Shown: piece by piece, positions 7,901-63,636 of the stretch
Position numbering within the stretch: the stretch's first letter is position 1
Layout of the letters: each line of letters begins with the position of its first letter
Source of the DNA: an uncultured bacterium
Lineage (GTDB): Bacteria > Babelota > Babeliae > Babelales > Vermiphilaceae
Direction: 5' to 3'
Assembly (NCBI GenBank): GCA_963695335.1
Contig: OY968764.1
Span: forward strand, 1,056,001-1,120,000
Length of the DNA: 64,000 nucleotides
Notes under the pieces: generated by a model
Told to the model about the DNA's origin: nothing
Seen by the model: only the letters and a program-made list of their open reading frames with translations
Databases searched by the model: none
Position numbers and translations under genes: made by a program

Positions 7901-9742
7901 TTAATCAACCTCAGGTTCTGATACGGTATATGCTTTTATCAATTTTTTTTGTCTTTCAACAGGTTGTTCCGTTAATACATTTTTTATTTTTTCAATATGC
8001 TCAGGAATAATTTTTTCAGATGGGTGTTGCTTACGCACCTCAATCATTTTTTCTTCATATTCTTTTCTATACCAGGAAGGACTCATCAAGGAATCAACTT
8101 TTTCAGCTCTAATTCCTGTGCTTTTTCCAACCTCCAACTCAACGAAATATAAAACACCAAATTTATCCTTAAAATAAACTCGAACATCCCCTGCGCTATG
8201 TCCACTAAAAATAACAATATCTTTCCTATCTCCAATCTCATCAATAAAAAAAACTTTATAAACTTGTGGTGTCCAATCTACTATAAACCAATGTAATACA
8301 TTAGCAAAACTTGTCGGCGATGATATTTTTTTTATTCTCTGAACAACAGGTTCTTGCCTATTACCAACTAATTTTGGTGATACCATAGAAAATATTGCCC
8401 TCATCTTATTTGAATTAAATTTAAGCTCAAAGGGAATATCATCTGTATATAACAAAATTATTTTAGGATCTTTCTTGAAAAAAGATATAACATCTAATGG
8501 TTTTTCAGGGTTTCTTGCTTCTGCCAAAACTGAATTTATTGAAACAACCTCTTTTTCCCATCCTAAAATTGAAAACCATTCTAATCTTGGCATTTTAATT
8601 TGAAATATCATTGACGCATGACCAGTAAACAAAGGCTCCATAATTTTTTCATACTCACCATTAAGCGTTGTGGCTCTTTTTAAAAAATGAGCAAAATTAA
8701 TACCTACTGTTAATTGTTTTTTTGCATATTTATCCCAAGCAACAGTATCAACAGCAGGAAGATAATCTCCTGTTGACACATTATTTAGCCCTTCCACTAT
8801 TATAGGAAATGAATAATAGCTTTTTATTTCCGACTTCATATTTCCATAAATCTTCTCACTATTTACCCCCATTGCATAACAAGATTTAACCACGAGCAGC
8901 TGAGTGATTATTTTATTTTCTAAAAAATATAGTAATTTTTTAAAACCATCAAAACTAAGCCATACTATCGAAGAATTAAGTAAACCATGGCCATCTATAT
9001 AAATAAACCATTCAGGCATACTCATACTTGCATTCTCATAGTCAGATTTTGTACAAAAAATAGCATCTAAAGAATCAATAAAATAATCCGCAAACTGTAC
9101 TTCATTCGGTCTATTAATGTCTTTAATATCAATAGTTTTCATATGATTAACTTTAAGTCCTAATCGTAATTCCACATCAGTTGTCAAGCTTGAAGACTCA
9201 AAATATTTCTCCACCTTATCCTTATCAATACCAAAAGATTTTAAATAAGATTGGGGTATCAAAAGATTCAATGAATTATTAATTTTTTTTATAATCCATT
9301 GCTCCTCTTTCCAGCCTATCCTACTTGTCACTATAGCATTCTTTATTGGATATTCTTGTCTTAAAGCTCTTTTTAAAATAGAATTCCCTGTCTCTCTTAA
9401 AACAACGTTTTCATCTGCCAACTCATTCATTAACTGATCAGTAGATCTATTATCTTTTCTTCTAAATTCAAGCAACATATACAATAATGAAGTAGAAACA
9501 ATTATTGGCCCGGCCTCTTGATAAAGTGCAGCCACTAAATCCGCTCCAACCGCATCAAATATACCTTTTTCTGCTTTTTCTGAGTCATCCAAAAATATCA
9601 GTAATCCTTTTTGCCTATTTATTTCTTCTTTCGATGGCAAACCCAGCCATCTTTTTACGTTAGTTTTACCCCTTTCTGTCATACGCATGGGAAAAAGATT
9701 TATTGAACAAAAAGCTACAAAAAATAAGATTAGATTTTTCAT
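7901..9742 (-). CDS. Secreted protein, putative clan CD cysteine protease (paralog 1)
   Basis: Signal peptide; WFIYIDGHG...LLVVKSCY; ends AYTVSEPEVD; paralog of 10692..12506. Confidence 0.7.
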   Translation of the reverse strand: MKNLILFFVAFCSINLFPMRMTERGKTNVKRWLGLPSKEEINRQKGLLIFLDDSEKAEKGIFDAVGADLVAALYQEAGPIIVSTSLLYMLLEFRRKDNRSTDQLMNELADENVVLRETGNSILKRALRQEYPIKNAIVTSRIGWKEEQWIIKKINNSLNLLIPQSYLKSFGIDKDKVEKYFESSSLTTDVELRLGLKVNHMKTIDIKDINRPNEVQFADYFIDSLDAIFCTKSDYENASMSMPEWFIYIDGHGLLNSSIVWLSFDGFKKLLYFLENKIITQLLVVKSCYAMGVNSEKIYGNMKSEIKSYYSFPIIVEGLNNVSTGDYLPAVDTVAWDKYAKKQLTVGINFAHFLKRATTLNGEYEKIMEPLFTGHASMIFQIKMPRLEWFSILGWEKEVVSINSVLAEARNPEKPLDVISFFKKDPKIILLYTDDIPFELKFNSNKMRAIFSMVSPKLVGNRQEPVVQRIKKISSPTSFANVLHWFIVDWTPQVYKVFFIDEIGDRKDIVIFSGHSAGDVRVYFKDKFGVLYFVELEVGKSTGIRAEKVDSLMSPSWYRKEYEEKMIEVRKQHPSEKIIPEHIEKIKNVLTEQPVERQKKLIKAYTVSEPEVD

Positions 9743-9827
9743 ATCTGAAAATCCTTTATTGAATATACCACTCAATAGATCATCACTATCATGATACTTG
9801 ATTTCCAAACTGAAAAGAAAGAGTTGA

Positions 9828-9894
9828 CCTTAGAATCTTCACTTCTTGGCGCAAGCCAGACGAAGTTGCGCAGCAACGGAGACTGGCGCGCCCG
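9828..9894. repeat. 67-bp exact direct repeat, copy 1 (tRNA 3' end plus downstream hairpin)
   Basis: Identical to 13660..13726. Confidence 0.95.
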
Positions 9895-9960
9895 ACAGGG
9901 ATCGAACCTGTGGCCTACAGATTAGGAATCTATCGCTCTATCCTACTGAGCTACGGGCGC
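9884..9960 (-). tRNA. tRNA-Arg(CCT)
   Basis: gcgcccgtagctcagtaggatagagcg-ataga-tt-CCT-aa-tctgt...ggttcgatcc...cgggcgcgcca; cloverleaf with encoded CCA. Confidence 0.95.
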
Positions 9961-10040
9961 TTCTTTAAATCATTATTTCAATAAAAATGCCCTACCGTCT
10001 CTAAATTATGGTGGGCAAATCAAACCTTTAAGAAGAATGG

Positions 10041-62638: not shown

Positions 62639-62644
62639 AAACGC

Positions 62645-62711
62645 ATATATATTCAAATAAGACCGATCATAATAAAAATAATATTATGATCGGTCTTATT
62701 TGAATATATAT
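62645..62711. repeat. 30-bp perfect inverted repeat with 7-nt loop
   Basis: atatatattcaaataagaccgatcataata / tattatgatcggtcttatttgaatatatat. Confidence 0.9.
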
Positions 62712-62775
62712 TTTAACTCAACATTTTTTTCATTATCCCCTATTCTTAAATAAACAGAAAGGGAGAACTTCACCC

Positions 62776-63636
62776 ATGCTGAATATCTTAACAAAAACAA
62801 AAATTATCCTTGCATGCCACATACTACTCATCTGTGCAACAACCCATGCAATGGAACTTGTTCCTCTAACGCCTACAGCAAAGAAAAATTTTCAGATACG
62901 TTGCCTTCAAGATATTTCTAAATTACCTCTTAAATACATACGTCCGTGTTTTAATCTTTTACCAGAAAAAAAGCGCCATGAACTTTTAACAACAAAAAAC
63001 AAAAACGGTATCCCTCTTGCAGAATCATTAATCTTTAATGTTGCTCTCTTAGAAGAAGAAAAAGTGCAACTCCAAATCCTTACATTTATGATGGATGGCG
63101 ATGAACTTTCAGCTCATCTATTTCACAAAAAACCGTTTTGGTACGTACAAAGAAGATATCACTCTGCAAAAAAAATGATTGAAAAATCATCATTAATAAA
63201 GCAACCCATTGCGCTACTGTTTAGATTGCCTATAGAGCAACAAAAAGAAATAATGGGTATTGTAACGCCAAGTTTTACATCTCAGTTAATGAATGATACT
63301 GCGATCATAATTCATGAATACAAGGAAGAAGAAATTAAACTCTATGATCAAGAAATTCAAAAAAGTTTTTTTGCTAATGAAAATATCAAAATAATGACAC
63401 GTACTGCACGAAATAACATTACTGAAAAAGCTTGTAAACCATATATCTTAGGTGCAATATCAGGAATGGCATGCGGAGGAATTTCAATAGTTGCAACACA
63501 TATCAGTGGAAATAATGCTAGTCTCATTCTACAGATTCTGCCCCCAATGGGAGGAGGAGCTCTTATAGGACTAATCTGTGGCCATATTTATTATACATGC
63601 GTAGCTAAAAAAGAAGCTCAGCTCATTAACATTTAA
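62776..63636 (+). CDS. Secreted or membrane protein (paralog of 59968..60801)
   Basis: THA-ME; IFNVALL; C-terminal hydrophobic pair. Confidence 0.72.
   Translation: MLNILTKTKIILACHILLICATTHAMELVPLTPTAKKNFQIRCLQDISKLPLKYIRPCFNLLPEKKRHELLTTKNKNGIPLAESLIFNVALLEEEKVQLQILTFMMDGDELSAHLFHKKPFWYVQRRYHSAKKMIEKSSLIKQPIALLFRLPIEQQKEIMGIVTPSFTSQLMNDTAIIIHEYKEEEIKLYDQEIQKSFFANENIKIMTRTARNNITEKACKPYILGAISGMACGGISIVATHISGNNASLILQILPPMGGGALIGLICGHIYYTCVAKKEAQLINI

Follow-up and report, generated by a model that had tools for sequence, protein, structure and literature searches.

Under the Q-rule of the Bacteroidetes, glutamine follows the signal peptidase I (SPI) cut in most SPI substrates throughout the phylum, and it is cyclised by a dedicated glutaminyl cyclase (accessible parts of PMC5837995 and PMC10653852). 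Here we describe a related pattern, with methionine as the residue, in an uncultured bacterium of the Babelota (Vermiphilaceae; assembly GCA_963695335.1). It was first noticed in a stretch of 64,000 nucleotides (contig OY968764.1, positions 1,056,001 to 1,120,000), called the window below, in which the Sec-like signals of 17 proteins are followed directly by Met. This Met would be residue +1 of the mature protein. As in the Q-rule, a lineage-specific residue follows the SPI cut in a large share of the substrates, and a tie to the stability of exported proteins, described for the Q-rule in the same parts of these papers, is proposed here. Unlike the Q-rule, the residue is Met, often as Met-Glu; it is found on ~45% of the candidates, is biased toward certain cargo and away from envelope proteins, and is patchy in the order. 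The Q-rule also has a modifying enzyme, whereas none is known here, no search having been aimed at one. When cut sites were scored blind to Met, Gln occupied +1 in 16/457 signal-bearing proteins of the genome and Met in 126/457. The +1 Met pattern works like the Q-rule and is not a member of it.

Two further systems are close. Listeria p60 is reportedly a substrate of the N-end rule in the host cytosol, and listeriolysin O is another Sec-secreted bacterial protein under N-end rule control there. The likeness to p60 is that a residue bared by signal cleavage would set the half-life in the host cytosol, as we propose here; unlike the single, destabilised proteins of Listeria, the present case would be a stabilising start on ~200 unrelated proteins. 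In Plasmodium, the PEXEL motif (RxL) is served by a dedicated protease and translocon, and the new N-terminus reads xE/Q/D. As in PEXEL, cleavage would leave host-bound cargo with a short new N-terminus whose second residue is acidic or an amide. Unlike PEXEL, the cut site is an ordinary -3/-1 site, there is one SPI and we saw no sign of a required motif: upstream of the Met we found only the -3/-1 pattern, and the genome has one PF10502 gene.

Those Dependentiae that have been described live as parasites inside protist cells and have many ankyrins and many orphan proteins that carry signal peptides (accessible parts of PMC6561590 and PMC4378268). In the same sources, signal peptides are given for 44% of the coding sequences and 78% of the ankyrins of Chromulinavorax (PMC6561590), and for 79/126 ankyrins of Babela (PMC4378268). 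The present genome resembles this repertoire in its signal-bearing orphans, its ankyrins and a type II secretion system (T2SS) with two gspD genes. Its RuvB is 89–95% identical to sequences from Candidatus Babeliales, TM6 and Dependentiae. The bacterium is likely a protist parasite.

Genome, gene calling and scoring

The genome (G000; the window is G000:C1:1056001-1120000) is one contig of 1,366,684 bases with 35.7% GC, on which our own procedure called 1,300 genes. Proteins entered a strict signal-like set if they had an ATG start, a non-negative n-region and a hydrophobic core free of charged residues, and lacked any additional membrane helix. This set comprised 457 proteins in the whole genome and 433 in the sampled part, which consisted of 60 of 64 planned stretches plus the window (1.18 of 1.37 Mb, ~87% of the genome). 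Cut sites are predictions of our own -3/-1 scorer; its Met-blind version uses only -3, -1 and hydrophobicity. Proteins with +1 Met were counted by a first rule, set before annotation (207 proteins), and by a refined rule, written after the annotations were known (196 proteins).

The 407 strict proteins that lie outside the window were trimmed to 900 residues and searched with Pfam, at 1e-7 for the first batch and at 1e-9 for the others; matches were counted at 1e-9 throughout. The cargo classes (eukaryote-like, envelope, other) are our own labels, the eukaryote-like class being made up of ankyrin, WD40, leucine-rich repeat (LRR), C2H2 finger and CwfJ proteins. F-box-like calls rest on our own regular expression only.

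Methionine at the predicted cut

By the refined rule, Met directly followed the signal end in 196/433 strict proteins (~45%). These belonged to 128 families, of which 109 were singletons. Genome-wide, Met was found within 10 residues past the hydrophobic core in 250/457 proteins, compared with 81 in a control stretch of equal length and 83.5 expected. The Met-blind scorer placed Met at +1 in 118/433 proteins of the sampled part, and 200 shuffles gave a mean of 20 and a maximum of 31. The initial annotation had named a cut away from the Met as grounds for dropping the idea; by the same blind score, the Met site was among the top two of 12 candidate cuts in 153/196 proteins. In pooled control loci from outside the Dependentiae, Met-blind scoring gave +1 Met in 1/71. 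In a set of 107 verified E. coli substrates, Met is one of the residues that +1 does not tolerate (accessible part of PMC2259416).

The 196 sites share the consensus [LITASV]-[HFY]-[ASGC]|M-E-[KP]-E. They have the features of Sec and SPI substrates, with a basic n-region, a hydrophobic core, a small residue at -1 and a small or aliphatic one at -3. Ala, Ser, Gly or Cys occupied -1 in 169/196 and Leu, Ile, Thr, Ala, Ser, Val or Cys occupied -3 in 173/196. Large residues were common at -3 (Leu 42, Ile 32), and Pro, Thr or Asn stood at -1 in 27/196. Glu was found at +2 in 101/196 and at +4 in 64/196, the latter a 5.2-fold enrichment. A lipoprotein reading of the Cys-Met sites was rejected, as 0/26 carry a lipobox. 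The Met-at-cut pattern is real and genome-wide.

A true start codon at the Met had been a further reservation. Shine-Dalgarno-like words preceded the outer ATG in 152/196 proteins and the inner ATG in 2/196, compared with 70/990 control internal ATGs. On these counts the inner Met was rejected as a real or second start. Glu also followed the start Met in only 17/371 cytoplasmic proteins, against 101/196 at the +1 Met.

Cargo with and without methionine

The Met was unevenly spread over protein classes. By the first rule it was present in 22/31 eukaryote-like and 5/29 envelope proteins (p=3e-5). The refined rule gave 23/31 eukaryote-like, 2/29 envelope, 9/54 other enzymes and 149/293 unannotated proteins. 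An equal frequency on periplasmic housekeeping proteins, which would have spoken against an effector signature, was thus not what we saw under either rule. By eye, the resident envelope proteins of this genome start with Q, N, Y, E or D. CaaX-like ends were found in 2/196 Met and 0/237 non-Met proteins, and the F-box-like expression matched six Met proteins (of 196) and one non-Met protein (of 237).

Possible host-directed features in the set were ankyrin, WD40, LRR, C2H2 finger, CaaX-like ends, F-box-like helices and one bipartite stretch resembling a nuclear localisation signal. In L097:2533-3945, P0097, P0004, P0007 and P0013, the signal is followed by a Met-Lys-Arg subtype, which resembles a bipartite nuclear localisation signal in P0097 and the LRR protein. 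The protein at L097:13186-13866 combines a signal peptide, +1 Met and eukaryotic C2H2 zinc fingers, and is a candidate host-DNA-binding effector.

Conservation of the methionine and origin of the leaders

Among sites of the form small-X-Glu, X was Met in 101, and its one-base neighbours Ile, Leu, Val, Thr, Lys and Arg together made up 12. Because of this gap, the +1 Met looks to be under selection. The second class at these sites was Ser (18) and Ala (8). In paralogue pairs below 45% identity, which are not independent of each other, the +1 Met was kept in 18/26 and other Mets in 33/111. An F-box-like ankyrin protein had +1 Met in all 15 relatives with a Babeliales-type leader, chosen by eye from 120 homologues, and +2 in these 15 was Glu or Lys/Arg. 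In 13 of these 16 proteins the flanking identity was 28% upstream and 15% downstream of the Met. A weak orthologue comparison with the G006 and ruvB loci gave nine pairs, with Met kept in six. As a check for Kozak-like selection on the DNA, Ser codons at -1 shifted mildly to AGY (22/49 vs 84/272).

Leader DNA similarity across families was mostly short and lay at the start site or on the Met-Glu-Lys-Glu codons. A single shared mobile leader cassette is therefore not supported as the cause. One database protein, P0221, has two signal-plus-Met-Glu leaders in tandem, which suggests leader duplication.

Proteins of the window

All 17 signal-then-Met motifs were recovered in translations of the open reading frames concerned, nine of them as Met-Glu, and the NlpC/P60 and GMC proteins lacked the Met as described. 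The proteins are listed with window coordinates and strand; the bar marks the predicted cut.

7901..9742, minus strand: orphan exported protein, LFP|MR, +1 ATG at 9688; paralogue of 10692; ends EPEVD
10692..12506, minus strand: orphan exported protein, IFP|MR, +1 ATG at 12419; ends EPEVD
15272..16168, minus strand: exported protein, F-box-like helix (expression only), VNS|ME, +1 ATG at 16099
25160..25696, minus strand: F-box-like (expression only), AHA|ME, +1 ATG at 25636; leader DNA 75% like that of 26030
26030..26524, minus strand: F-box-like (expression only), LHA|MK, +1 ATG at 26470
26526..27272, minus strand: F-box-like (expression only), SNP|ME, +1 ATG at 27221
29030..29644, plus strand: orphan with CaaX-like C-terminus (CIVS), TYA|ME, +1 ATG at 29087
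29648..30733, minus strand: ankyrin-repeat protein (Pfam), TFC|ME, +1 ATG at 30670
30765..31871, minus strand: ankyrin-repeat protein (Pfam), TFC|ME, +1 ATG at 31808
32508..33041, minus strand: orphan, MSG|MM (alternative PLT|MS), +1 ATG at 32975
40969..42789, minus strand: orphan, LFS|MK, +1 ATG at 42729
46580..47119, minus strand: orphan with GTG start, LSA|MK, +1 ATG at 47047
47256..47618, minus strand: small orphan, LCA|ME, +1 ATG at 47555; a relative in locus L006 retains LCA|ME
47648..48022, minus strand: small orphan, LNT|MG, +1 ATG at 47959
55675..56871, minus strand: ankyrin-repeat protein (Pfam), SYS|ME, +1 ATG at 56793
59968..60801, plus strand: orphan, MHA|ML, +1 ATG at 60031; a relative in locus L005 retains LHA|ML
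62776..63636, plus strand: orphan, THA|ME, +1 ATG at 62851
2935..4185, plus strand: contrast, exported NlpC/P60-like enzyme without Met, ISA|ER
20701..22440, minus strand: contrast, signal-bearing GMC oxidoreductase without Met, IHA|DS

These Mets sit 17–29 codons downstream of an outer start (n=17). Shine-Dalgarno-like words were found at 14/17 outer starts and 0/17 inner ATGs. Four sites (7901, 10692, 26526 and 47648) have Pro or Thr at -1, which is unusual for SPI. Pfam matched 3/17 proteins, all as ankyrins (29648, 30765, 55675), and the other 14 had no match. The F-box likeness named in the initial annotation had no Pfam counterpart, with no F-box match at E<=0.01 among the window proteins. 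Its description of the carriers as mostly from unrelated families does not apply to all of them, as 7901 and 10692, 26030 and 26526, and the three ankyrins form related sets.

Distribution in Babeliales and alphaproteobacteria

Other Babeliales were sampled at 80 kb each, and Met-blind hits were counted among their strict proteins. The hits numbered 7/36 in G022, 6/13 in G058, 6/26 in G032, 2/27 in G051, 1/15 in G054 and 1/12 in G014; G016 (0/30), G018 (0/18), G052 (0/16) and G015 (0/7) had none. In G006, a member of the same genus read over 400 kb, there were 21/129. G006 (L151-L170) prefers Met-Asp (11/29), unlike the Met-Glu of the present genome. In an ankyrin cluster of G052 (35 strict proteins), Ala (11/20) and Met (4/20) alternate at one position after x-Pro.

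A profile was built from 62 of the genome's own leaders; at 14 bits it matched 3/237 of its own non-Met proteins. In twelve whole Babeliales genomes the matches, counted unread, were 37 (G022), 24 (G006), 14, 11, 7, 7, 6, 4, 2, 1, 1 and 0. Seventeen alphaproteobacteria that carry an ATP/ADP translocase gave 13 (G091), 6, 5, 3 and 2 likewise unread matches, the rest 0–1, and four larger alphaproteobacteria gave 0. Against 1.84 billion representatives the profile, too short to be useful there, gave two matches, one of them spurious. The +1 Met is patchy across the order.

G091 is a translocase-bearing alphaproteobacterium whose closest named FtsK matches are Paracaedibacter/Odyssella (61–62%). 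By eye, 4/12 of its signal proteins had +1 Met, three of them Met-blind (p ~0.01 vs control), and its LolA and YkuD had none. Homologues of one of its proteins read A|MD in 3/4. Further genomes from outside the phylum gave 0/3 (G084 and G192) and 1/9 (G124). The motif thus appears, from these sequences, to recur in one amoeba-symbiont-like alphaproteobacterium.

A proposed host-like start for released cargo

We interpret the +1 Met as a selected, host-like N-terminus, proof against N-degron recognition, for cargo released into the host; we regard this reading as evenly balanced between right and wrong. The observed part is a motif that lies at the predicted cut, is not a start codon, is kept while its neighbours drift and is biased to eukaryote-like and orphan proteins. 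The remaining steps we infer. Sec would export the cargo, and the single LepB would cut directly before the Met. The T2SS or vesicles would then carry the cut cargo across the outer membrane and it would reach the host cytosol or nucleus, where its half-life would be lengthened.

A signal peptidase cut usually bares an arbitrary residue, often a degron such as Glu, Asp, Gln, Asn or Lys. Sec substrates favour an acidic residue here, and a Met placed before it would convert this degron into a host-like start, and the host's N-degron ligases and methionine aminopeptidases (MetAPs) would spare Met-Glu. At an N-terminus Met, Ala and Ser are stabilising. At +1, Ala or Ser would serve almost as well as Met, which would explain why Met is common and not required, and why lineages differ.

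The residue at +2 is in line with this proposal. Exposed Glu, Asp, Gln, Asn, Lys and Arg and Met-hydrophobic starts are listed as degrons, and MetAP takes off Met only ahead of small residues (accessible part of PMC8037982). At the 196 sites, MetAP-cleavable residues were depleted at +2 (20 observed, 70 expected), as were hydrophobic ones (22 observed, 44 expected), and Asp, Glu, Asn and Gln were enriched (133 observed, 47 expected). Without the Glu sites, MetAP-cleavable residues were still depleted (20/95, 36 expected) and the Asp/Glu/Asn/Gln trend persisted. Of the two ideas in the initial annotation, host mimicry therefore fares better, with the +2 pattern in its favour. Its weakest part is acetylation by NatB of imported, folded proteins; NatB is ribosome-bound and acts mainly at the ribosome.

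Several points weigh against this interpretation. The cut sites are predictions of a crude scorer, not mapped ends. Without the Glu sites, the hydrophobic depletion at +2 disappears (22 observed, 22.7 expected), and since an acidic +2 is ordinary among Sec substrates, the +2 bias is no proof of host-side selection. The degron rules of this bacterium's host may differ from those applied. The envelope class contains uncleaved anchors, and in its cleaved subset, picked by eye, Met occurred in 2/14; a DegP-like protease and possibly BamD carry it. Cargo type and gene age are confounded, because Met status also tracks gene age (149/293 among unannotated proteins). In other Babeliales, ankyrins use other starts, some of them degrons: those of G051 start mostly A-Q-E or S-E and some Q-N-D, those of G022 start with Met three times and with Tyr twice (Y-E-G), and those of G058 start Met-hydrophobic. 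Seven other translocase-bearing alphaproteobacteria had Met in 1/58.

Possible roles of export, processing and fossil starts

The genome encodes a T2SS, with GspG above the cut-off, two GspD, GspC, and GspE-, GspH- and GspL-like genes. In the accessible parts of earlier reports, all TM6 genomes have two gspD (PMC4776705) and a T2SS was the sole secretion system found in Babela (PMC4378268). Such a system might read Met-Glu-x-Glu in the periplasm, through its two secretins and PDZ-bearing GspC, or a chaperone or vesicle loading might do so, and select cargo for a second export step. The presence of a T2SS, the sole one found in Babela, agrees with this idea, the bias to eukaryote-like cargo fits it equally, and the motif reaches +4, beyond what an N-degron needs. 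However, the GspD pair and GspG were found in 12/12 Babeliales searched, Met-rich or Met-poor, yet leader-profile matches outside the present genome span 37 to 0, and Met is near absent in several. Most ankyrins of G051 and G052 have no Met, and neither do 8/31 eukaryote-like proteins here, so the tag is not on all likely cargo nor wherever a T2SS occurs. The second residue varies within the genus (Glu here, Asp in 11/29 of G006) and within one family (Glu or Lys/Arg). In G091, which has the motif, nothing matched GspG at 1e-8 and secretins were matched only in part, although incomplete genomes can miss genes. The sorting tag suggested in the initial annotation is weakened by this, and we consider it unlikely; a required export tag in particular is unlikely, because Met is patchy despite a T2SS in 12/12 and no GspG was found in G091. 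A second SPI dedicated to Met cargo was rejected, as there is a single gene.

Alternatively, the role of the Met may lie in processing within the bacterium: a relaxed signal peptidase would use it at P1' to fix the cut register, and the habit would have spread with the leaders of young genes that duplicate fast. In LepB, Thr and Val take the places of E. coli Ile144 and Ile86, which belong to the S1/S3 pockets (accessible part of PMC2259416), the large residues at -3 and the Pro, Thr or Asn at -1 are common, and leaders are shared by neighbouring genes or, in P0221, stand in tandem. However, the five Babeliales copies seen all share this LepB change, half of the present substrates do without Met at the cut, and the bias against envelope proteins is left unexplained. 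Cross-family leader matches are mostly short and most families are singletons, which also fits poorly, and we think this explanation unlikely. Finally, a signal peptide could have been added before an acquired gene whose old ATG persists or still makes a cytoplasmic form. Real fossils of this kind exist: PEBP (LKGNP|MKLTSP, with its former Shine-Dalgarno retained), GlmU and a glycosyltransferase keep a native-like inner start. As a general cause this is largely refuted and in our view very improbable: the Shine-Dalgarno rate at the inner ATGs is below that of control internal ATGs, Glu at position 2 is rare in cytoplasmic proteins, one-base neighbours of Met are nearly absent, and cytoplasm-type enzymes with an acquired signal mostly have no +1 Met (9/54 of the 'other' hits have it). 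Thymidylate kinase has Met-Glu-Pro-Glu-Lys ahead of a second, native-like Met.

The Babeliales LepB (L084:7744-8718; L002, L004, L167) reads W-T-K-R for E. coli Y-I-K-R, and Val for Ile86. These changes may, judging from the sequences, be the cause of Pro, Thr and large residues at -1/-3. Signal ends often had Pro at -1, and markedly so in the ankyrin cluster of G052 (L198-L199). A regular expression for secreted X-Pro dipeptidyl peptidases matched none of the 433 strict proteins.

Novelty and implications

In the main texts of PMC6561590, PMC4378268 and PMC4776705, as far as accessible, the residue after the cut is not mentioned and 'methionine' has no match; the accessible part of PMC5837995 on the Q-rule does not mention TM6, Dependentiae or methionine. 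Full-text searches and look-ups in Dependentiae and Q-rule papers gave no report of +1 Met, within a scope that lies outside supplements (e.g., the signal-peptide tables of PMC4378268) and most subscription papers. The pattern is real and probably unreported.

A wider form of our proposal, an M-rule, would be that Sec-exporting protist parasites have at least twice, in Babeliales and in a Paracaedibacter-like alphaproteobacterium, evolved a cryptic second start Met on hundreds of unrelated effectors, so that the cleaved proteins begin like products of the host's ribosomes and escape N-degron surveillance. We offer it tentatively, as somewhat less than an even prospect. The case for convergence comes from a small sample: 60 kb of G091, 3/4 homologues of one protein and the unread profile counts.

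Genetic tools are lacking for Dependentiae, exported orphans make up about half of their proteins, and nothing yet splits host-bound effectors from envelope residents. The +1 Met gives such a split from sequence alone, with ~150 unannotated candidates in this genome; if the M-rule holds, the motif would flag ~200 effectors per genome. If the N-degron interpretation holds, protein quality control in the host would determine how an entire bacterial secretome begins, and this may have arisen independently in a second phylum. For work on this group, starts or cuts may be set wrongly by gene callers and signal predictors that were trained on E. coli, in which +1 Met is disfavoured.

Other genes

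Usually cytoplasmic enzymes with signal-like leaders, most with a good Shine-Dalgarno and some retaining the old inner start, included OMP decarboxylase, a dihydroorotate dehydrogenase-like protein, thymidylate kinase, UDP-glucose dehydrogenase, GlmU, an epimerase, glycosyltransferases, AhpC and possibly PEP synthase/PPDK. Leaders on such enzymes were seen at:

L061:9820-12331
L063:12006-13484
L076:16242-17102
L079:3892-5427
L110:5009-10402
L087:11934-12452
window 22462-25002

The EPEVD tails of the window paralogues at 7901-9742 and 10692-12506 resemble EEVD, the tail by which Hsp70/Hsp90 bind TPR co-chaperones, and are a possible chaperone-tail mimic. Without +1 Met were a signal-peptide protein with Hint and Ntox21 domains (window 5958-7787) and MutS-like ATPase proteins with signal peptides (window 60857-62638; L051:15160-17106). 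Two small unannotated genes after the Hint/Ntox21 gene (5443-5973, 4840-5427) may encode immunity proteins. By eye, a UvrA-like gene at window 49213-51862 is split over two overlapping open reading frames of 755 and 167 amino acids.

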